57,300 nt of DNA, taken from Candidatus Pacebacteria bacterium GW2011_GWA1_46_10 (GTDB lineage Bacteria > Patescibacteriota > Microgenomatia > UBA1400 > PJMF01). The stretch lies in the NCBI GenBank assembly GCA_001002135.1, contig LCLP01000003.1, positions 107,198 through 164,497 of the forward strand, in the 5' to 3' direction. This document shows positions 1,988-50,711 of the stretch, in pieces. The position numbers and the translations under genes were made by a program. The first letter of the stretch is position 1. Every line of letters starts with the position of its first letter. The notes under the pieces were generated by a model that was given only the letters and a program-made list of their open reading frames with translations, was not told the DNA's origin and made no database searches.

Positions 1988-2026
1988 GATTTAATTACAC
2001 CAAAATATATCAATCACTGACTAATT

Positions 2027-2605
2027 TCAACTTGTAGATACAAAATCTTCCTCCACCCACCCACTTTTACCTTTTCTAAACATATACGCCAACCCGTTGG
2101 GTAATTCATATCCAATGTGTCCTTTGGCTGGTGGAGTTTTTCGTAAGTGATGCAACAAAATTCTCAACACCCCTCCATGACAAACAATTAAAATGTGCTG
2201 ATTTTTGTGGGTTTTTAAAGTGCTCGTAAAAGTACCTATCACTCGAGAAACAAAATCCGTAGGTGGCTCAGTATACATGTCTATCGTCTCGTGACGGGCT
2301 GCCAGTTCCTTTTGCACTGCCGGCCACAATCTTCCCTCAAAAATGCCGTAGGACTGCTCGTTAAAACCAGGCTCTTTTTCAACCGGCACCCCTAGTCTTT
2401 TGCCAACAATTGCCGCGGTTTGATACGCCCTTTTAAGATTTGAAGCGATGATTGTATCAAGCGAAAAACGCGAAAGATTCTCTGCTAATAATTTTGCTTG
2501 CTCGATCCCAACACTCGATAAAGGAATATCTCTTGCCCCTTGTAATCTTTGTTCTTTATTCCAAGTAGTTTCCCCGTGTCGAGCGAGGAAGAGCATTTGA
2601 GACAT
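2027..2605 (-). CDS. Histidine phosphatase family protein
   Basis: RHGET catalytic motif, SNLKRAYQTA and C-terminal VCHGG. Confidence 0.9.
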   Translation of the reverse strand: MSQMLFLARHGETTWNKEQRLQGARDIPLSSVGIEQAKLLAENLSRFSLDTIIASNLKRAYQTAAIVGKRLGVPVEKEPGFNEQSYGIFEGRLWPAVQKELAARHETIDMYTEPPTDFVSRVIGTFTSTLKTHKNQHILIVCHGGVLRILLHHLRKTPPAKGHIGYELPNGLAYMFRKGKSGWVEEDFVSTS

Positions 2606-2674
2606 AACCGAATTGTACCAAAAGAGAGCTCCCCTTAGTAGACATTGTTGGAACCTACTTTTTCAAACAATCGC

Positions 2675-4576
2675 TTACAAATTGCTCTCTTTACTAAAGA
2701 TGTCATCACTATTCAACTGATTCCCCCCAATTCTTATCAAAATATTATTAGCAACAGTTAATTGATCTTCTGCGGGTAAGAAAGGAAGAAGTGTGAAATA
2801 TAACTCACTTTCATTATAAAAAGTATCGCCGTATTTTTCATTCAATATACCAATTAGTCTGTCGGTGTTTTTAGTCAAATATATTTCTTTTAATTCATCC
2901 TCACCTATATCATCCACTATTTTTTCAATTATTTTCACAAGAACTGGATAACCAAGTTGTGTACTTATATTAAGTTCTTGCTTTATTGCCTTTCTAGCAA
3001 AGTATTCAGTTAAACCTTCCTCAAAAAACCCTGGCAAGACAGTTTCTTCGGAAACATAACTCGTATAGTGGAAGTATTCATGTACCAAAGTTGATAAATA
3101 ATCAGCTAATGTATTACTGCTTGTATAGTCCAAGGCTATTTTGATTATTTGATCTTCTGGCTGAAAAATACCAAGTTCATAGACAGTTTGCCCTTTTTGG
3201 GTTTCAATAAGTGTTACATAATATTCAAGATCTTCGTTTATTTGGTTCCATTCTGACGCTTCTGCCTGTGCTTGCCCAAGAATTGCTTGCCATTCTGAAA
3301 TTTCGTTTTGATATCCAATTACGATTGAATCCCACTGTCCTCTTACATTTTCACACTCTTGATCTGAATAGTATCTGTGAAATCCAGGTTCATAGTAATA
3401 AGTATAGTAGCCTGCACTTTTGCAATAATCATAATCAGCTTGTTGTTTATTTCTTGAATCCTGAACATACTGCTCTCCCAAGGTAATATTTTGTTTTGCT
3501 TGCGAAATTACCCCGTATATTCTATTTACCTCATTAGTTATTTCTGTTTGGAGATCTCTAACCTCTTTAATTTGTTCATTAAACATCGTCTCTCTATAAC
3601 TCAGGTATTCTTGTCTTCCTAATACTTCTATTTTTGGTTCACTCTTAACATATCTGTCTTCTAGATAATTTTTAACGTAAAGTTTGCCTAAAACTGGGCT
3701 AATTTTTTCTATCTCATCCTCATTTATTTTTCTAAAAACTAAACTATTCTTTACTATGACTAAATCAGAATTATTTTTAACAGTAGTAAAAACAAAATTC
3801 TCTGGTATTAAATTCAATACATTATTATTAAAGAATAAATTTTCAGAACTGTTGATTCCTTCATAGGCATCAACAATAGTTTTGCTAAAGTTCTCTTCAC
3901 CATTTCGAATCGTTGGCAAATTATTACTATCTTTTAAATAATTAACTACCTCATCTGCTCCCCATTTCACCTCAGAGGAATTATTAACCTTTATTGGTGC
4001 CCAATTTACTTGAACTAATCCAAATATCAAAGTAATTAACGGTGACAACACCCAAGCAGTTAATAATGTTAAACCCGTAAAACTAATTGCTTTTCTTATA
4101 TTTTGCTGTTTTCTATAAAGAATAAATACAAGAGCTCCTGATAATAATATTAAGACCAGCAAAATGTCTAATCTGTTAAAGAATGTGAAAAAAGTCGACT
4201 TAAAATAAGCTATAAAAATGTTATTTTCACTGCTGGCTTCTAATATTCTTAATGAAACAAATGTGAAAAAAACAGTAAATAATCCTACATAAATTAAAAA
4301 TATTTTATTATTTAACAATAATCTAAAATCAATATTTTTCACACCTTTCTTAATAGATAAATTTTTTAAATCAGGGAATTTTATTTTTGGCCTAGCTATT
4401 TTTTTATATGAAAGATCATATAAGTATCTATCAACAAAAATTGAAATGATTAAAACAACGCCAATTAATAGAAAAAAAGTGTCTTTGTAAAAGAAAGATA
4501 ACAAGAAAAATATAATTGAAATAATTATTGCAAGAGGATTTAGATTCTTCTTAATTTTCTTCTGTTTTTTTAACAT
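2675..4576 (-). CDS. Membrane protein with C-terminal gluzincin-like metallopeptidase motif
   Basis: Several hydrophobic helices, a coiled-coil-like middle and HEYFH...EEGLTE; AT-rich DNA. Confidence 0.7.
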   Translation of the reverse strand: MLKKQKKIKKNLNPLAIIISIIFFLLSFFYKDTFFLLIGVVLIISIFVDRYLYDLSYKKIARPKIKFPDLKNLSIKKGVKNIDFRLLLNNKIFLIYVGLFTVFFTFVSLRILEASSENNIFIAYFKSTFFTFFNRLDILLVLILLSGALVFILYRKQQNIRKAISFTGLTLLTAWVLSPLITLIFGLVQVNWAPIKVNNSSEVKWGADEVVNYLKDSNNLPTIRNGEENFSKTIVDAYEGINSSENLFFNNNVLNLIPENFVFTTVKNNSDLVIVKNSLVFRKINEDEIEKISPVLGKLYVKNYLEDRYVKSEPKIEVLGRQEYLSYRETMFNEQIKEVRDLQTEITNEVNRIYGVISQAKQNITLGEQYVQDSRNKQQADYDYCKSAGYYTYYYEPGFHRYYSDQECENVRGQWDSIVIGYQNEISEWQAILGQAQAEASEWNQINEDLEYYVTLIETQKGQTVYELGIFQPEDQIIKIALDYTSSNTLADYLSTLVHEYFHYTSYVSEETVLPGFFEEGLTEYFARKAIKQELNISTQLGYPVLVKIIEKIVDDIGEDELKEIYLTKNTDRLIGILNEKYGDTFYNESELYFTLLPFLPAEDQLTVANNILIRIGGNQLNSDDIFSKESNL

Positions 4577-5798
4577 AAAAACTGAAATTTAATGTTTCAT
4601 CAGTATTAGAGTTGCATTCAAATCTTATTTCACTATCATTATTAGAAAATTTTATCTCTTCAAAATCTGTTTTATTTTTAACTGAGTCAAACGAAGGAGG
4701 AACTTTATCCAACTCATTAAGGAAGTCAGCCAGATTGTTTTGGTCTGGATATTCATCTTTATACGAAGAATAAATATTTGTTTTGTACCAAATCAAATTA
4801 CATACCATTGCTCTGGTTTCCCAAGAAGTAATATGCGGAAGAATTGGATATCGTCCCAAATCATTGTCTGAAAAACTATAAAGCTTATTCAATTTATTAA
4901 TATTAATGTTAGCAATCTCGCTCTGAAGTCTGTCATGCTCCTCAAATAATTCGTCCATCACCCTATCCCAATCTAAATTGAAATCAGCTTCTTGTCTGGC
5001 AATAGCCTCATATTTATATGATGCAGAATCATAATCACCGACTGCTAAATCTTTGAGCATTAAATAAGTATCTCCAAATAATTTTTTCTGCTTAGCTAAC
5101 GTTTCTGAAAAGTAACTATAATTTTGTTCTATTACATCTTGACCATCAAAAACAAAATCACTCCTAGTATATTTTTCCAACGGAGAAACCATATTAAAAT
5201 TCTGAGAAATCAAATCTTCACTCTCACCGATATAATTGTCAACGAACTCGTTTAAGATCGCTCTGTCTTTAAAAATTAATGATAGATTTTTAATAACATC
5301 ACTTTCTATTAATGACCTATTAGAAGCATTAAGCTCCGCATCGTAGTATTGAAAGGCTAGATCAACATATTCATCAATAAATTTTCCGTTTTTTGTTATA
5401 AAAAATTTACTAAATGTGTCTATGTTTTGAAAATTTTGACGATTTTCCTGTAAAATGGCTATATATTCTCTCGCCCTTTGGTCATTAATCTTAACTTCAT
5501 TTGAAACCAGGTTGTATTCGATAACCATTTCAGCAGATGAGGAGCTTTCAAGATGTGAAAAATAGTCGCCGATTAAATTATTAATAGTGTCATTTTCATC
5601 CTGTGCATTATTGGCAAAAGAAATTTCTTCTAATTCTACTTCTTTTTGTAGTTCATTTAGCCTGGTGAGTTGATGCCACTCAACAATTCTATATGCAAAA
5701 AATAGAATTATTAAAAAACCCAAGAAAGGGAGAATGCCATGATCGTAATTCTTAACACTATTTTTTATATTTGAAAAGACTTTTTTAATATTTTTCAT
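4551..5798 (-). CDS. Hypothetical membrane-anchored protein
   Basis: 415 aa, single N-terminal TM helix, AT-rich; overlaps the next gene's start. Confidence 0.7.
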   Translation of the reverse strand: MKNIKKVFSNIKNSVKNYDHGILPFLGFLIILFFAYRIVEWHQLTRLNELQKEVELEEISFANNAQDENDTINNLIGDYFSHLESSSSAEMVIEYNLVSNEVKINDQRAREYIAILQENRQNFQNIDTFSKFFITKNGKFIDEYVDLAFQYYDAELNASNRSLIESDVIKNLSLIFKDRAILNEFVDNYIGESEDLISQNFNMVSPLEKYTRSDFVFDGQDVIEQNYSYFSETLAKQKKLFGDTYLMLKDLAVGDYDSASYKYEAIARQEADFNLDWDRVMDELFEEHDRLQSEIANININKLNKLYSFSDNDLGRYPILPHITSWETRAMVCNLIWYKTNIYSSYKDEYPDQNNLADFLNELDKVPPSFDSVKNKTDFEEIKFSNNDSEIRFECNSNTDETLNFSFYVKKTEEN

Positions 5799-5976
5799 CT
5801 TAAATTTATCTAGCTATTCTAACATATTATTGATATTTAGGGCTTTTCTTTATTTGTTCAACAAAGATATTAAATAACAACTCCGCAGTTTCAATGTCTT
5901 TGATTAATTCATCATCCGATATATTTTCAACATCTTTGTCTAAAATTATTTTCGCAGTGTTTAAATCCATGATTGA

Positions 5977-6387
5977 TTATTTTTTATTTTTAAACCACTG
6001 ATAGCCACCATATCCAACTCCTCCCAAAGCAAGTAGTCTCATGAGCCAATCATCATCCGAAGAATTGTTGGTTTGTTGTGTAATATCAGTTGAAGAACTT
6101 CTTTTTGGAACTGAGCTTGGAATTGAAGTGGGTTTAGGGGTGGAAGTTGGCTTAAGAGTGGGCTTGGGTGCTGAAGTGACTACTGGAAGCGGAATGGTTT
6201 CTACAACACCTCCACCATGACAATGCCTTGCTCCTTCAACCTCTCCCCACTTCGCACAATTAGTACGACAATAATGGCAACCGTCTGAAGCAGTATTGCC
6301 AGGATGAGCAAAAACTTTTGATATCGAGAAAACAGTAAGTAATGAACAAATAGATAAACCAAATAAAAATGACTTCACAAAACTCAT
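5977..6387 (-). CDS. Secreted YHYH-like domain protein with Pro/Thr linker and C-terminal anchor
   Basis: Signal peptide, HPGNTASDGCHYCRTNC...HCH, P/T/S linker, TM helix and KNKK tail. Confidence 0.65.
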   Translation of the reverse strand: MSFVKSFLFGLSICSLLTVFSISKVFAHPGNTASDGCHYCRTNCAKWGEVEGARHCHGGGVVETIPLPVVTSAPKPTLKPTSTPKPTSIPSSVPKRSSSTDITQQTNNSSDDDWLMRLLALGGVGYGGYQWFKNKK

Positions 6388-6422
6388 TTTACCAGAGAAA
6401 GAGGTTCTAACGTACTACAGAG

Positions 6423-6493
6423 CAGGCTCACTAGGACTCGAACCTAGGCGAAGGGTTTTGGAGACCCTCATGCTACCACTACATCATGAGCCT
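6423..6493 (-). tRNA. tRNA-Trp (CCA)
   Basis: Cloverleaf: AGGCTCA/TGAGCCT acceptor stem, loop CT-CCA-AA, T-loop TTCGAGT. Confidence 0.95.
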
Positions 6494-44552: not shown

Positions 44553-45419
44553 TTACTCACGCAAACCGGTTGACTGCACCCAAATTGTCTCTCCGTCAGT
44601 TGCCAATTCAATGTCACCCAATTGGTCGGTACGCAAAACCGCACTGCCCACAGCAGCCAAATTTTCCAACACCGATTGAGCTGGATGACCATAGCTATTT
44701 TTCCTACCGGCACTGATGACTGCCAAGCTTGGGCTGATTTTCTCGAGGAAAACCAGGCTGGAACTGGTCGCTGAGCCATGGTGACCGACTTTGAGCACGT
44801 CTACTTGAGGAAGTAGCCCACTGGCCACCAGCCATAACTCTCCTTTTTCCTCGAGATCACCGGTAAACAACCAGCTGGTTCGCCCGTACTCGAGTAAAAA
44901 CACGATGGAGCGGTCATTTTTACTCTGTGCGGCCGGGTTTTCGCCTGGTTTCTCGAGGAAAGTGAGCCAGCCTCCTTCCGGCAAACGAACTGACTGGCCT
45001 AAAATCGGCTGTTTCAAGGCGGCGCCGTTGGCTTGTTCCTGCAAAATTGCCTCTTTTAAAGCCTGGAGAGTGGCAGTATCCTTATTTGTAGCTGGGAAAA
45101 ACAGGTATTTTGTGTCATAAAGACCCAAAATTTCCTCGAAAAAACCGATGTGATCCTCGTCGCCGTGGGTCAAAATCATCACCTCAATCGTTCGATCCCA
45201 CGCCGGCAGAAACTTTCCCAAACAGCCTAGCACTCGATCATCCTTTCCGCTATCAATCAGCACTTGAAAAAAGTCTTGCTGTATCAGAATAGAATCACCC
45301 TGACCAACATCACAAAAGATAACTTTTATTGATGAATCAGGCCATTTTTTATAGACAAAATAACCCAAAAAAGCCAAAATTGCGGCGGTGTAAAAAAGGC
45401 GTTTTTTAAACTTTTTCAT
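44553..45419 (-). CDS. ComEC-type metallo-beta-lactamase-fold nuclease domain (stand-alone)
   Basis: DVGQGDS, THGDEDHIG, NDRSIV, LFTGDLE, KVGHHGS and SYGHP. Confidence 0.9.
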   Translation of the reverse strand: MKKFKKRLFYTAAILAFLGYFVYKKWPDSSIKVIFCDVGQGDSILIQQDFFQVLIDSGKDDRVLGCLGKFLPAWDRTIEVMILTHGDEDHIGFFEEILGLYDTKYLFFPATNKDTATLQALKEAILQEQANGAALKQPILGQSVRLPEGGWLTFLEKPGENPAAQSKNDRSIVFLLEYGRTSWLFTGDLEEKGELWLVASGLLPQVDVLKVGHHGSATSSSLVFLEKISPSLAVISAGRKNSYGHPAQSVLENLAAVGSAVLRTDQLGDIELATDGETIWVQSTGLRE

Positions 45420-46740
45420 GAAAAAAGTGCGTTTTTACTTCTCTTTTTCTACGGGTCAAAATAGCAAAAATACCTATAATTCCCGCCCAAATTGCTAGAT
45501 ATCGCTGCTCCAACCCTTCAGCCACAGTTTGATTAAGAAAATACCAAGGCTGCCACCAGGCTACAGCAGCTAAATAGAGCCGCAAAACGCCAGTCATCAG
45601 CGAGGAAGTTACCTCGAGTATCACTCGCACTGGCCAATATTGCTCAAAGAAAGCCAGGAGAAACTGTAACCCTGCCGCCTGGGTAATACCGCCAATCCAG
45701 GGTAAAAGCAGTGGGTTAGCCAGGAAACTCACCAAGTTGAGTGAGTGAAAAAACCAGATCAGCAGGGGAAAAATCAGTGCCTGAGCTGAGAGAGAAACTG
45801 CTCCCTCCTCGAGAAAAATGCGTGAAACCCTCTTTAACTGTGGCTCCCCATTTTTTGGCCATCCCTCCTGCCAAAAGAGCGATAAACGCCTAGAGAAAAC
45901 CATAATCCCGAGGGTAGCCAGCACTGACAACCAGAGGGAAAGTGAGGCAACCAGGGCGGGTTGAAAGCTGAGGATAATCACCACTGACCAGGCTAAAACA
46001 CGCACTCTTTGAGTCTTTTGGCCCAAAAACTTGAGCAGGAAAACCAGCGAAAACATCCAAGCCGCCCGTAATAATGGTGGTTGAAACTTGAGAAGAATGA
46101 CATAGGTCCAAACAACTGCTAAAATGAGAGTAAGTTGCATTTTTCTCGAGAAAAACCGAGTTAGTCGACGAGCCGCACCGGCTACCAGAGCGACGTTAAA
46201 ACCAGAGGCCACCAGCACGTGCAGCATACCGGCATTAGTAAAATCGGGATAAAAACTGGCTTCGGGAGATTTTTCTCCTAAAACTAAACCTCTCGTGAAC
46301 TGAAGGTTATCTTGAGAAAAGTAGAGTTTAAGCACGTTAATTTTTTTAGCCTGGATTTCCTCAAGAAAATTTTCCAAGCGAAAAAACCGATATTTAAACA
46401 AAGCCAACCAAAAATTTAAAAGACTTTTAGATTGATTAATCAATCCTTTTACAGTAAAAACCTGCTTGTCAATCAGTCCACTTTGATTGCTAAATTTCAG
46501 CTCGTTTTGGCTTTCTACCAGGCTAAACATCTGGTTTTTTGACCTCTCCAAACATTCATAACAAAGTGTATCAAAGTAGGTATTTTCTGAGAGTGATTTT
46601 GAGCTATTTCGGTTTCTGTTCGCTAGCCAAAACTGATCTATTAATATTTTTGAAATAATTATGGTTAATATAAATAGTATTAAGTAAATCAAAAACATAT
46701 TTTGTGATACTAGCCCGTTTTCTTTAAGATGAATGAACAT
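45406..46740 (-). CDS. comEC: ComEC/Rec2 competence membrane domain
   Basis: GMLHVLVASGFNV, PPLLRAA, LSVLATLGI and LANPL motifs. Confidence 0.88.
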   Translation of the reverse strand: MFIHLKENGLVSQNMFLIYLILFILTIIISKILIDQFWLANRNRNSSKSLSENTYFDTLCYECLERSKNQMFSLVESQNELKFSNQSGLIDKQVFTVKGLINQSKSLLNFWLALFKYRFFRLENFLEEIQAKKINVLKLYFSQDNLQFTRGLVLGEKSPEASFYPDFTNAGMLHVLVASGFNVALVAGAARRLTRFFSRKMQLTLILAVVWTYVILLKFQPPLLRAAWMFSLVFLLKFLGQKTQRVRVLAWSVVIILSFQPALVASLSLWLSVLATLGIMVFSRRLSLFWQEGWPKNGEPQLKRVSRIFLEEGAVSLSAQALIFPLLIWFFHSLNLVSFLANPLLLPWIGGITQAAGLQFLLAFFEQYWPVRVILEVTSSLMTGVLRLYLAAVAWWQPWYFLNQTVAEGLEQRYLAIWAGIIGIFAILTRRKREVKTHFFHEKV

Positions 46741-46822: not shown

Positions 46823-47458
46823 TTAGAGAGAAATCAATTCCTTTATCTCGTCAAAAATCCCCTCCGTCAGCACTTTTCTCACCACGAGCTCGTCCAGGGT
46901 GTGGTACGGCCTGTTTTCGATGATTTTAGTTGCTCTAGTCTCACCTATTCCCGGCAAAGTCTCTAGTGATTCAGCAGTAGCAGTATTCACCGAGATCTTA
47001 TCGGCAACCGAGTCAACGGATGATTGTTCACTGGCATTGCCAGCGGTTGCCTGCTGCTCTGGCTTTTCACCGGCAAACGGCACGTAAATCTTTTGCCCAT
47101 CCTTGACCGGATCTGCCAGGTTCAGACCTTTAACGGTAAAATCACGGTCTGCTCGTTGGGAAAAGCCGCCGGCCTTTTCAATCGCCAGGGCCACCCTGGA
47201 GCCAACTGGCAGCTGCCATACTCCAGGATTGACCACCGCTCCGGCCACCTCGACCGTCAGCTGCTGCTCCTTGAGAAAACTTTGTTCGCCTACCGCCGCC
47301 AAAACCTCAGCCGAGCACAGCGGCACCTCTGCTCGTTCCACCATCAAAACCTGCAGACCGTAGGCTATCCCGATGAGCCCTACGGTTCCTGAGAGCAGTT
47401 GGAGCGCCGCGCCCCAATTACCGCTGAAGTTTTTGAAGAGGTGAGCGCCCCACTGCAT
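46823..47458 (-). CDS. comEA: ComEA family DNA-binding protein (SLBB plus HhH)
   Basis: VEVAGAV.NPGV..L..GSRV..AI.KAGG, NLA..V.DGQKIYVP and INTA...L..LPGIGE.RA. Confidence 0.9.
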   Translation of the reverse strand: MQWGAHLFKNFSGNWGAALQLLSGTVGLIGIAYGLQVLMVERAEVPLCSAEVLAAVGEQSFLKEQQLTVEVAGAVVNPGVWQLPVGSRVALAIEKAGGFSQRADRDFTVKGLNLADPVKDGQKIYVPFAGEKPEQQATAGNASEQSSVDSVADKISVNTATAESLETLPGIGETRATKIIENRPYHTLDELVVRKVLTEGIFDEIKELISL

Positions 47459-47549
47459 AACTTTACTATGCGGGTGGAAACGAACAAAAAATGTAACTTT
47501 TTGGAGAGGAAATTAAAACATCTCGGGAAAAAATGAATTTTAAAACATC

Positions 47550-47576
47550 AAAAAACCCCCGATAAAATCTGGGGGT
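47550..47576 (-). terminator. Intrinsic terminator downstream of the leuS/tRNA-like unit
   Basis: ACCCCC...GGGGGT followed by TTTTT on the minus strand. Confidence 0.7.
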
Positions 47577-47590
47577 CTTTGACTTTCCTA

Positions 47591-47637
47591 AAGCTCTGAC
47601 TGGAACTTTAAGCGGCTTTGTCACTCCGCAGTTAAAG
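47591..47637 (-). repeat. Inverted partial copy of the tRNA-like 5' half, forming an anti-anticodon hairpin
   Basis: Plus strand AAGCTCTGA and GCGG-cttTGTCACTCCG match the minus-strand tRNA-like RNA; hairpin CTTTAA-GCGG/CCGC-TTAAAG with a 10-nt loop. Confidence 0.75.
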
Positions 47638-47684
47638 CGAATATAGTGTCGGAAAATTAAATTGTCAAGGTTTCATTTATGCCC

Positions 47685-47760
47685 TGGAGCTGCTGGAGGG
47701 ACTTGCACCCTCTCCTACGGAGTGACAATTCCGCCGCTCCACTATCAGAGCTTCAGCAGC
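47685..47760 (-). tRNA. Non-canonical tRNA-Asp(GTC)-like RNA with 8-nt anticodon loop
   Basis: All four stems intact and CCA encoded, but A8, D-loop TGATAGTG, loop ATTGTCAC, T-loop TGCAAGT and U73. Confidence 0.7.
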
Positions 47761-47821
47761 ACCTCACAGGGCAATTTGAGTATGCCAACTGAAACTGAAC
47801 GTTAAGTGTAACTTTGGAAAA

Positions 47822-50299
47822 CTACTTTGTCGCAAAACTGACTATTTTGCCGGGAATGTAAATTTCTTTAACAATCTGTTTATCTTTGAGCCATTTTTCT
47901 ACCCCAGCAAGCTTTCTAGCCTCAACCAAGATAGTCGTTTGATCCTCAAGCTGACCATGCTCGACCGTCAACTGCCCCCTCAGCTTACCATCCACTTGAA
48001 CAGCCACCGCCACTCGCTCTTCCTGAGCGAGCTTGGCGTCAAATTTCGGCCAGGGTTGAACGTGAACGCCTTGGTATTGTTTGGTTCCCTTAACTGACAC
48101 TAACTGCCCATAGAGCTCCTCTGCCATAAACGGCGCGAACGGGGCCAGCATCTTTATAAACATCACCAAATCCTGACTGGTTAGAGCCGTTTCATCACTG
48201 TCGCGAGCGGTTTTCTCCCAAAGATTGAGAAACTCCATCATCGCCGCAATGGCTGTATTAAATTTCAGCGCCGGAATATCGGCCGTCACTTTTTTGAGGG
48301 TTTGATGGAGTTTTCGTGCCAACGCCGGATCAGTTTGACTCGAGACTTTTAATTGGTATACAGCAAAAACCCGTTTTAAGAACCGTGCCACTCCCGCCAC
48401 CGCCCGGTCATCCCAAGGCTTAGCCGCCTCCAGTGGCCCCATGAACATCTCATAAATACGCAAAGTGTCGGCGCCAAACTTACTAATAATCTCATCAGGA
48501 TTAATCACATTGCCCTTGCTTTTGCTCATCTTCTTGCCATCTGGCCCCAGAATCATGCCCTGGTGGCGCATTTTGGTGAAAGGCTCGTTAATGGTCAAAT
48601 ACCCCTCGTCACGCAAAAACTTAGTGAAAAAACGGGCGTACAGCAAGTGCAAAACAATGTGTTCCGGACCAATAAGGTACAAATCCACTGGCAGCCAAGC
48701 TTTCAGTTGCTTGGGATCAGCAAAAGCCTTGGTATTGCGAGCATCCAAGTAGCGAAGGAAGTACCAGCTGGAGTCGACAAATGTATCCATGGTGTCAAAC
48801 TCCGGCCGCCACCCCTTGCCATAGAGTTTCTCTGTGCGCGCCACAAATTCCTGGGAAGACTTGAGCGGCGATTCACCGGTCGGCTTAAAGTCCACGTCGG
48901 TGGGCAGTGTCCACGGCAGATGTTCCTCTTTTACCGGATGTGGTTTGCCGTCAGGATCATAGACAATCGGAATCGGTGCCCCCCAGTACCGCTGACGGGA
49001 AATCAGCCAGTCACGGAGTTTGTACGTCGTCTCCCAGCGTGCAAAGCCTTGTTCAATCATCCAGGCAGCCATATTCTCCTTGCCTGCTCCCCAGGCCTCT
49101 TGGCCATCAAACTGCCCAGAATTCACGAGTTTACCAGGACCCTCGAACGAACGCTCGCTGTTTCTAACCGCCTGATCGATCTTAGAATCGTCGTAAGAAA
49201 CAACTTGCGTAATCGGCAAACTATATTTCTTAGCAAAGGCAAAATCACGCTCATCATGTGCTGGCACACCCATCACGATCGCCGTGCCAACTCCCATCAA
49301 GATATAATCAGCCACAAACAGTGGTACCTCTTGGCCATTGACCAGATTCACCACAGTCAAGCCAGTGTTAACGCCGGTTTTGTCTTTCTCACCAATCCGG
49401 CGCTCTTCTTCGGTTTTATGTTTGGCCTGATCAAGATAATCAGCCACAGCCTGCTGTCTGTCAGCGGCCACTAAATTACCCAACTTCAACGCCTCGAATT
49501 TCTCTGGCGCCATCACCACAAATGTGGCCCCATACACCGTCTCCCAAAACTTGGTCCAGACAGGCAGCGCTTGACTATTTTTTTTAAGGGTGAAATCAAT
49601 CGTTAAGCCTTTGACTTTGCCTATCCAATTGCGTTGGTGTTGTTTGGTGGCCTCTGGCCAGTCAACCTGGTTAAGCCCGTCGAGTAACTCATCTTGATAC
49701 TGCGTAATCTTGAAATACCACTGCTCCAGTTCCTTTTGGACCACCTTAGTACCGCAGCGCTCGCAGTGGCCCTCGACTACTTGTTCATTGGCCAACACTG
49801 TCTGGTCCTTGGGGCACCAATTGACTACACCGATCCCTCGGTAAGCCAAACCCTTTTTATACAACTGGAGAAACAACCACTGGGTCCAACGATAGTACCC
49901 AGGGTGGTTGGTGGCCAGTTCATTAGCCCAATCGTAGGAAATACCTAGCCGTTGAATTTGGCCGCGAAAAGTGTCAATCGCCTCCCTGGTGGTGACTGCC
50001 GGGTGAACGCCGGTTTTGATAGCGTAGTTTTCTGCTGGCAGACCAAACGCGTCCCACCCGACCGGAAAGTAAACATCCTGGCCGGTCATCCGGTAGAAAC
50101 GCGTCAACATATCTAGTGCGGTCTTTGACTCCACATGACCAACATGGAGCCCAGAGCCAGACGGGTACGCAAAAGCAAATAAGAGATATTGCTTATTTTT
50201 TGGTAAGACAGCAACTTGATCTTGAAACAACCCAACTGTCGCCCAGTATTTTTGCCACTTGGCTTCTATTTTGGCGTGATCGTACTGCATTTTCTTCAT
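47822..50299 (-). CDS. leuS: Leucine--tRNA ligase
   Basis: YPSG.GLHVGH, GWDAFGLPAEN, CP...TVLANEQV..G.CERC, ISRQRYWG and KMSKS. Confidence 0.98.
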   Translation of the reverse strand: MKKMQYDHAKIEAKWQKYWATVGLFQDQVAVLPKNKQYLLFAFAYPSGSGLHVGHVESKTALDMLTRFYRMTGQDVYFPVGWDAFGLPAENYAIKTGVHPAVTTREAIDTFRGQIQRLGISYDWANELATNHPGYYRWTQWLFLQLYKKGLAYRGIGVVNWCPKDQTVLANEQVVEGHCERCGTKVVQKELEQWYFKITQYQDELLDGLNQVDWPEATKQHQRNWIGKVKGLTIDFTLKKNSQALPVWTKFWETVYGATFVVMAPEKFEALKLGNLVAADRQQAVADYLDQAKHKTEEERRIGEKDKTGVNTGLTVVNLVNGQEVPLFVADYILMGVGTAIVMGVPAHDERDFAFAKKYSLPITQVVSYDDSKIDQAVRNSERSFEGPGKLVNSGQFDGQEAWGAGKENMAAWMIEQGFARWETTYKLRDWLISRQRYWGAPIPIVYDPDGKPHPVKEEHLPWTLPTDVDFKPTGESPLKSSQEFVARTEKLYGKGWRPEFDTMDTFVDSSWYFLRYLDARNTKAFADPKQLKAWLPVDLYLIGPEHIVLHLLYARFFTKFLRDEGYLTINEPFTKMRHQGMILGPDGKKMSKSKGNVINPDEIISKFGADTLRIYEMFMGPLEAAKPWDDRAVAGVARFLKRVFAVYQLKVSSQTDPALARKLHQTLKKVTADIPALKFNTAIAAMMEFLNLWEKTARDSDETALTSQDLVMFIKMLAPFAPFMAEELYGQLVSVKGTKQYQGVHVQPWPKFDAKLAQEERVAVAVQVDGKLRGQLTVEHGQLEDQTTILVEARKLAGVEKWLKDKQIVKEIYIPGKIVSFATK

Positions 50300-50314
50300 C
50301 GTTCAGTCTATTTT

Positions 50315-50361
50315 AACTACCAACCACTAACTATCAACTATGAACTCTAAACTATTCAACT
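50315..50361. repeat. Heptamer-periodic repeat, single arm, copy 4
   Basis: AACTATC-AACTATG-AACTCTA-AACTATT units upstream of leuS. Confidence 0.7.
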
Positions 50362-50711
50362 TTCTTTTTGTGCAAAACTGGTGGAAAAGTAACCTTCCAT
50401 AAGTAACTTCGGCTATTATTCACGCATCATTACAAGGACTATAGTGACTTAGCAAAATCGGTCTTTATTACCGCATTATTCACGATTTATTACCGAATAA
50501 TCTGGTACATCGATTAACGCAAAAATAAAAATATTGATATTAATACTATTTTGTATATCTTACTGTTTTTACTTTTCTTACATTTTCAAAAACCCGAAGT
50601 AACTTTCTAACATACCGAAAAAGAATCAGAAAAAAGAAAAAGAAAAACCAGAGTAAAAATAACCTTAAAATAAGTCAATCAAAAGGAATCAAACCAAATT
50701 ATGAATATTAC

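Follow-up and report, generated by a model that had tools for sequence, protein, structure and literature searches.

What connects a tRNA-like gene with an enlarged anticodon loop to the complementary sequence that follows it on the same strand? The question is raised by a locus between leuS and comEA in Candidatus Pacebacteria bacterium GW2011_GWA1_46_10, an uncultured member of the Patescibacteria (candidate phyla radiation, CPR) whose sequence is present in groundwater and soil metagenomes; the DNA analysed is a 57-kb stretch of its contig LCLP01000003.1, hereafter the window. A preliminary description of this DNA read the tRNA-like RNA and the downstream hairpin as parts of one element acting in cis. 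The explanation favoured here is that they are two RNA genes, an odd tRNA and an antisense-derived small RNA, which possibly form a pair in trans. Taken as a whole, this explanation has the balance of probability slightly on its side; what it says about the anatomy and history of both genes is considerably more probable, and an interaction between the tRNA-like RNA and the small RNA is, as predicted from their sequences, a tentative proposal.

The first gene (47685-47760, minus strand) has the architecture of an intact, non-canonical tRNA. Its cloverleaf extends over 47760-47688, with an encoded CCA reaching to 47685, and its stems of 7, 4 (5), 5 and 5 bp contain no mismatch; in the isolated 76 nt the cloverleaf is the minimum free energy (MFE) fold, at -32.4 kcal/mol and 43% of the ensemble. 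Reading and folding thus confirm what had been noticed at the outset: perfect acceptor, D, T and anticodon stems, the encoded CCA, an 8-nt loop and U73. The Rfam tRNA model (RF00005) matches at full length (model positions 1-71) with 43.4 bits against a cut-off of 29, and its alignment places an insert after position 32. ARAGORN leaves the gene uncalled at its default threshold and, at a lowered threshold, returns it as 'tRNA-?(Thr|Asp)(gt)'. The loop itself, AUUGUCAC, has 8 nt where canonical elongators have 7, and the gene likewise departs from the G18G19-Psi55-C56 and U8-A14 interactions of canonical elongators, positions 8 and 14 being A and U: it has A8 A9, the D-loop UGAUAGUG, the T-loop UGCAAGU and U73, in addition to the encoded CCA. 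The extra loop base is real, being the same in contigs from 8 independent runs and in 3 other assemblies, and three strain variants of the locus are identical across the region, with zero variation among them. Metagenome contigs contain no second copy of the gene at 80% likeness. A leader segment, GCCCUG (47767-47772, minus strand), is read directly and is complementary to CAGGGC at 47686-47681; the two had been proposed to extend the acceptor helix, but because 6 and 2 unpaired nucleotides intervene they are not coaxial with the acceptor stem, and they amount to a 6-bp inverted repeat without comparative support.

Which amino acid this tRNA would carry is ambiguous. Counted from its 3' side, the anticodon loop reads U33-GUC-A37-C38, which, together with G10, gives the anticodon, C38 and G10 of tRNA-Asp; the discriminator is U73 instead of the G73 of tRNA-Asp, found in 10 of 10 ARAGORN tRNA-Asp genes of the fetched loci, and U73 with G1-C72 and C2-G71 is the pattern of the window's two tRNA-Thr genes. 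The original designation as tRNA-Asp-like therefore holds for the loop and for G10, but the acceptor end points to Thr. ARAGORN finds no canonical tRNA-Asp in the window, and none was found in the fetched CPR loci. In the Asp register the loop becomes A(31.5)-U32-U33-GUC-A37-C38, so that the extra base lies beside the 5' strand of the stem, the site of insertion in SufJ; by this reading of the loop, the tRNA-like gene is SufJ-like in its geometry. SufJ, with its C31.5 insertion, decodes a triplet in the A-site and then shifts (PMC4238358). Since ordinary reading of triplets is also possible with an 8-nt anticodon loop (PMC7609411, PMC3113583), frameshifting is not implied for the gene described here.

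The unusual D- and T-loops are shared with a natural class of tRNAs. The T-arm sequence GGGTGCAAGTCCCTC, with which IMG/VR was scanned, has 121 matches there, 53 of them inside tRNAs that ARAGORN calls; these represent many isotypes and belong for the most part to the tRNA arrays of phages. The fetched loci gave 581 unique tRNAs, and when D- and T-loops are counted together over this set, a D-loop without GG occurs in 107 of 146 tRNAs with a UGC T-loop, as against 3 of 372 with a UUC T-loop (Fisher p = 4e-73); the D-loops typical of the class are ..UAGCAG, ..UAGUAG and ..AUAGUG, the last of which is that of the tRNA-like gene. One phage tRNA-Thr(UGU) further resembles it in having A8A9 and U73 and in encoding CCA. 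The window's six canonical tRNA genes all have GG in the D-loop and a T-loop of UUC or UCC type (not UGC), and none of the six encodes CCA. The tRNA-like gene is, on these sequence features, a structurally coherent member of this alternative-elbow class, unlike the host's own tRNAs, and the 'lost' G18G19 and U55 are therefore not decay: their absence, as described earlier, is confirmed, but its interpretation as loss does not hold, since both absences co-occur in a natural class. With loops that fit this class and all 21 stem pairs intact, the view that the gene is not a randomly decaying pseudogene is upheld. The gene may be of foreign origin.

Phage tRNAs with the T-loop UGC(A/G)A and a D-loop without GG recur over the IMG/VR loci L165-L284 (for example L178 8028-8103, L270 and L170), often in large arrays beside canonical tRNAs. 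Phage records and IMG/VR contain no extended similarity to the locus as such; matches of 14 to 15 nt are at chance, except those to the T-arm.

The element downstream is a small-RNA gene with signals of its own. A sigma-70-type promoter (47640-47668, minus strand) has the form TTGACA-17 nt-TATATT, agreeing with the consensus at 11 of 12 positions, and its hexamers are identical in L161, the relative discussed below; TTGACA-N16-18-TATAWT has a single match in the 57 kb of the window, where 0.03 are expected, and this match lies between the tRNA-like gene and the anti-anticodon hairpin. With the start set by the -10 box, the predicted small RNA has ~83 nt (47550-47633, minus strand) and consists of a 5' segment, GGAGUGACAAAG, which represents the anti-anticodon; a second hairpin at 47611-47588, which contains the anti-D-arm sequence UCAGAGCUU; and an intrinsic terminator, composed of a hairpin and a U6 tract, at 47580-47550. 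It is non-coding and conserved above the neutral rate (93% as against 39-79%). Because it has its own promoter and terminator, and is 93% conserved in L161 without the tRNA-like gene, the downstream element is probably a gene in its own right, rather than a part of the tRNA transcript that sequesters the tRNA; the self-sequestering element in cis, as first proposed, is not supported by the same observations.

A 52-aa open reading frame (ORF) running through the small RNA is frameshifted in L161 and was rejected. On the plus strand, a promoter-like site, TTGTCA-18-TATAGT (47618-47647), is partly built from the anticodon-loop sequence and would transcribe antisense to the tRNA-like gene; its preservation in L161 follows from its overlap with the conserved unit. 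The terminator hairpin (47549-47582) has a 34-nt near-copy with 4 mismatches and unrelated flanks on a second contig, which in four metagenomes has the same depth as this genome; the near-copy resembles a terminator that has been used again, or a small repeat at another place in the genome.

The complementarity between the two genes is real and extensive, as the preliminary description had it, reaching the anticodon arm and the D arm and being followed by the terminator. The segment GCGG-AGUGACAAAG-CCGC (47629-47612) pairs with 16 of the 18 nt of the tRNA-like anticodon arm, one pair being G.U, and UCAGAGCUU (47599-47591) is the exact complement of nt 8-16 of the tRNA-like gene, that is, of 9 nt in the D arm. 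Aligned with the small RNA, the reverse complement of the tRNA-like gene scores 27 in the window and 29 in L161, where the maximum in 2000 dinucleotide shuffles is 24 (z ~7); the inverted alignment spans nt 5-46 and is free of gaps over the anticodon arm. The complementarity is thus homology, the small RNA being an inverted copy of nt 5-46 of the tRNA, and antisense to the D and anticodon arms for that reason. From the gap-free anticodon arm it follows that the source tRNA already had its 8-nt loop when it was copied, before the window and L161 lineages split. The characters that match the tRNA differ between the two small RNAs (CCGC in the window, GCUCCA..AUCAGAG in L161), so that the small RNA of the common ancestor was closer still to the tRNA. 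When 704 tRNAs were searched for a copy of the anti-anticodon in their vicinity, one 11-mer case was returned, which is at chance expectation.

The history of the two genes can be followed through relatives, collected as 80 GTDB and 80 JGI loci around relatives of LeuS, which were compared with nhmmer, blastn, ARAGORN and Rfam, and through exact-protein look-ups. None of the 80 GTDB and 80 JGI loci carries a tRNA-like gene or small RNA downstream of leuS; the look-ups yielded L161, with a LeuS 82% identical to that of the window, as the only relative found with the small RNA. There, promoter, RNA body and terminator are present directly after leuS, and neither alignment nor Rfam reveals a tRNA-like gene over the 9.7 kb of contig examined. 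The paired element expected downstream of leuS in relatives was thus recovered as to the small RNA, in L161, but the tRNA-like gene was found in none of those examined. Promoter and RNA body are identical between window and L161 at 85 of 91 nt (93%), compared with 48% at third positions and 39% at 4-fold sites of leuS, and 64-79% in neighbouring intergenic regions. In the L161 small RNA, hairpin 2 and the terminator are both retained; of the changes there, one is one-sided and one compensatory. In hairpin 2 (AAAGYUC/GAGCUUU) a C-to-U change is kept as a G.U pair, which is functional on the minus strand only, and the stem of the terminator has been rebuilt from different sequence. On this comparison, the small RNA appears to be under strong purifying selection in both lineages and to need no adjacent tRNA-like gene.

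Neither element is found in five relatives at 75-77% LeuS identity, three of which, at 76-77%, came from the exact-protein look-ups. The position at which leuS ends, with ...TK*, ...TD* or ...AD*, is the same in L081, L083, L396, L397 and L398 as in the window; in L161 it ends with ...TRP*, the stop codon being the TGA within the TTGACA of the -35 box. Because only the leuS of L161 ends in this way, its state is read as a derived deletion, which removed the leuS stop, the spacer and the tRNA-like gene. Both elements would then have been gained in the common ancestor of the window and L161 lineages. Since the tRNA-like gene would have been present before a split that saturates synonymous sites, and yet retains 21 of 21 stem pairs, we infer purifying selection on it in the window's lineage as well.

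These considerations suggest a lineage-specific insert of ~315 nt between leuS and comEA, carrying two RNA genes: an intact non-canonical tRNA of the alternative-elbow class with a SufJ-like 8-nt loop, and a small RNA of ~83 nt with its own strong promoter and terminator, which would have been born by inverted duplication of nt 5-46 of the former. The two independent transcripts might meet in trans through antisense (kissing) contact of their loops, whereby either the tRNA would be sequestered by the small RNA, or the small RNA titrated by the tRNA; the small RNA would have at least one further role, independent of the neighbouring tRNA. Within the window, the tRNA-like gene is the best trans-duplex partner of the small RNA, at -63.9 as compared with a background of -21.4 +/- 5.7 and -41.3 for the next best; for the loop contact, UUGUCAC is available to GUGACAA, giving 7 bp that are extendable to 11 bp.

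Several observations weigh against this explanation. Hairpin 1, which was described as displaying the anti-anticodon loop, is broken in L161, where GGAGUGACAAAG lies in a mostly unpaired 5' region; the complementarity that had been attributed to it stands, but the hairpin is not conserved in the sole relative with the element. Pairing past the loops would need unfolding of the tRNA. The small RNA is kept in L161 without a neighbouring tRNA-like gene, so that its selected function is not simply control of that neighbour, and the complementarity may perhaps be a relic of its origin. Selection on the tRNA-like gene presumes that it has resided at the site since before the split, which is parsimonious but not proven. 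The tRNA-like gene is known from one sequence only, in ~15 billion proteins' worth of contigs reached via LeuS, and the small RNA from two sequences; none of the public RNA runs contains the sequence, and coverage is zero in four metatranscriptomes of the same studies.

Among the other explanations, two retain a low but appreciable probability. In the first, the tRNA is translationally active and the small RNA is functionally unrelated to it; the tRNA would either shift by +1 at GAY-N, as its SufJ-like loop might allow, or decode triplets in the manner of yeast mitochondrial tRNAThr(UAG). An intact cloverleaf with encoded CCA, an insertion at the same place as C31.5 of SufJ (PMC4238358), the compatibility of 8-nt loops with normal triplet decoding (PMC7609411, PMC3113583) and the age of the loop length are all as expected of such a tRNA. 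Its identity is ambiguous, however, with U73 pointing to Thr and the GUC context to Asp; the gene is dispensable in L161; and no candidate frameshift site was found, the split comEC being without GACA and conserved in relatives that have no such tRNA.

In the second, held to be about as improbable as the first, the insert is what remains of a mobile element or phage that had integrated. The tRNA would be its cargo, the small RNA an antisense 'immunity' RNA that has been domesticated and is comparable to P1/P7 C4 or P4 CI, and the flanking repeats an old duplication of the attachment site. The insert of ~315 nt, from the tRNA-like gene to the terminator region, is in fact flanked by direct repeats of ~45 nt with 69% identity. 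Copy A (47773-47817, minus strand; AAAGTTACA...GCATACT...TTG) precedes the tRNA-like gene and duplicates the region upstream of comEA; copy B (47456-47502, minus strand) is that native upstream region and ends at the comEA ATG. AAAGTTACR occurs only twice in the window, AAAGTTACA is restricted there to the two repeat sites, and GTTAC(G/A) is found 33 nt ahead of the comEA ATG in the window, L161, L081, L083, L396, L397 and L398, that is, in all seven. This flanking repeat suggests an insertion event, and possibly a mobile-element remnant, as do a tRNA class found in phage tRNA arrays and unlike the host's tRNAs, a promoter unusually near the consensus, and a different insertion in the leuS-comEA spacer of L396. 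The significance of the repeat is modest, however, as its local-alignment score is reached by 25 of 2000 shuffles; Pfam shows no integrase or phage genes nearby, similar sequence is absent from phage records and IMG/VR, and the Rfam C4 antisense RNA has no match at E<=10 in the region.

The insertion in L396, a relative at 77% LeuS identity, lies at 4980-5741 and carries on the opposite strand an ORF of 253 aa with no function assigned; insertions seem to recur in the leuS-comEA spacer.

A narrower form of the explanation favoured here makes the small RNA a dedicated anti-tRNA RNA, strongly expressed and derived from the inverted tRNA copy, whose kissing partner would be the 8-nt anticodon loop of a SufJ-like tRNA (its neighbour, a copy encoded in trans, or a tRNA of this class from a phage); it is more doubtful than either of the preceding two. 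If it were true, recoding would be gated, or a foreign tRNA neutralised, by the anti-tRNA contact, and CPR bacteria would possess a new level at which tRNAs are controlled or defence is exerted.

Of comparably slight probability, and if anything lower, is the single transcript of the preliminary description, whose downstream hairpin would turn back to pair with a tRNA mimic and so make a self-sequestering or T-box-like kissing switch of termination before comEA. Read-through co-transcripts are possible, since there is no terminator between leuS, the tRNA-like gene and the downstream unit; the whole 236 nt fold with z = -6.8 into an MFE structure that pairs the two regions; and the loop contains a specifier-like GAC followed by A. 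Against it, the consensus promoter lies between the two parts, the unit persists with 93% identity in L161, where the 9.7 kb examined are devoid of the tRNA-like gene, and hairpin 1 is not conserved. A T-box-like switch in particular is further disfavoured by the lack of a T-box match in Rfam at E<=10 over 47400-47900, where no other riboswitch is matched either, by the absence of a UGGN bulge, which would bind NCCA, from 47633-47550, and by the nature of the downstream gene, comEA. Least probable of all is that the tRNA-like gene is a pseudogene and its inverted duplication a product of chance or of neutral change, both parts being functionless: for all that ARAGORN makes no call by default, that the arrangement is confined to a single lineage, that public runs and the four metatranscriptomes yield no RNA evidence and that the gene is lost in L161, it would have to accommodate 93% conservation of the downstream unit beside saturated neutral sites, 21 intact stem pairs, odd loops that match a natural tRNA class and inverted homology at z ~7.

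The two putative RNA genes are set into the following neighbourhood: on the minus strand, leuS (50299-47822) is followed by a spacer of 363 nt, comEA (47458-46823) and a split comEC, and the order leuS-comEA-comEC is common to all relatives examined. The leuS product (47822-50299, minus strand) has 825 aa, with the Pfam tRNA-synt_1, editing and anticodon-binding domains and the C-terminus ...SFATK*, as in the outgroups L397 and L081; comEA (46823-47458, minus strand) encodes Pfam SLBB and HHH_3 domains. The split comEC consists of a Competence-domain ORF and a Lactamase_B ORF, which overlap by 14-17 nt (ATGAAAAA...), at 44553-46740 in the window, 7365-9549 in L161 and 6292-8482 in L081; because relatives share the split, it represents two genes in a stable arrangement and not a frameshift. 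As a target of frameshifting by the tRNA-like gene it was rejected, having no GACA and showing the same overlap in relatives without this tRNA.

Further features of the region lie outside the leuS-comEA spacer. The 412-nt spacer upstream of leuS (50300-50711) is 73% identical to that of L161 and contains long, perfectly conserved blocks, for example TATAGTCCTTGTAAT and GTTCATAGTTGATA; Rfam gives zero matches in it at E<=1, and it may be an undescribed leuS leader. At 2001-6400, beside a tRNA-Trp (6422-6493), the window has an island of low GC content (28-35%, compared with ~47%) with ORFs of 633, 415 and 136 aa that are without Pfam match, which may have been acquired horizontally. In L397, positions 1-748 belong to a called gene of 6006 aa near leuS, with Laminin_G_3 and weak phage-integrase SAM-like matches.

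If the two RNAs interact, the locus would be a natural case in which the inverted copying of a tRNA gene gave rise to a small-RNA gene that strong selection has since maintained: a clean example of small-RNA gene birth, and perhaps of a tRNA under antisense control. An old 8-nt loop in a free-standing bacterial gene bears on the question whether frameshift-prone or recoding tRNAs are normal genome content or the province of laboratory suppressors. Alternative-elbow tRNAs, with a UGC T-loop and a D-loop without GG, score poorly in standard detectors and may for their part be under-annotated.

Among known systems, the T-box resembles the locus in that a leader-like RNA presents GAC and a purine to an anticodon loop, with a terminator downstream; it differs in that the locus has no T-box or Stem I motif and no NCCA-binding bulge, that pairing reaches into the stems and the D arm, and that the downstream gene is comEA. 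The C4 and P4 CI RNAs, small RNAs that RNase P frees from tRNA-like precursors, carry two short segments complementary to downstream sites of the same region. For the C4 antisense RNA of phages P1 and P7, this processing is given in a secondary citation (Hartmann 1995, cited in PMC4919922). At the locus described here, in contrast, the 'target' is itself a unit with promoter and terminator, which persists where the tRNA-like gene is missing, and there is neither an Rfam match nor a phage context. In the case of 3'ETS-leuZ of E. coli, the transcript of a tRNA locus base-pairs with a small RNA and titrates it, the sponge being a spacer; here the partner would be the body of the tRNA, in an interaction predicted from sequence. 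The non-proteinogenic tRNAGly of staphylococci have UGC in place of T-Psi-C and a D-loop without GG, are kept off the ribosome and work with Fem transferases; they are specific for Gly, whereas the class of the tRNA-like gene spans many isotypes in phage tRNA arrays.

The closest parallels to the loop come from two tRNAs of Thr. SufJ is the Salmonella tRNAThr(GGU) with a C31.5 insertion, its extra base lying between the stem and position 32, with 33-37 canonical (PMC4238358). The tRNA-like gene shares with it the 8-nt loop, the site of the insertion and a Thr-like acceptor end (U73, G1-C72, C2-G71); SufJ is a laboratory suppressor mutant with GGU, whereas the window gene is natural, its loop length is old and its context is GUC/UGU, frameshifting being in its case a prediction from the loop. 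Yeast mitochondrial tRNAThr(UAG) has an 8-nt loop, derives from tRNAHis, is charged with Thr and is functional (PMC3113583, PMC7609411). Although it is organellar, tied to a codon reassignment and without an antisense partner, it resembles the tRNA-like gene in being a natural tRNA that combines an enlarged loop with a mixed identity.
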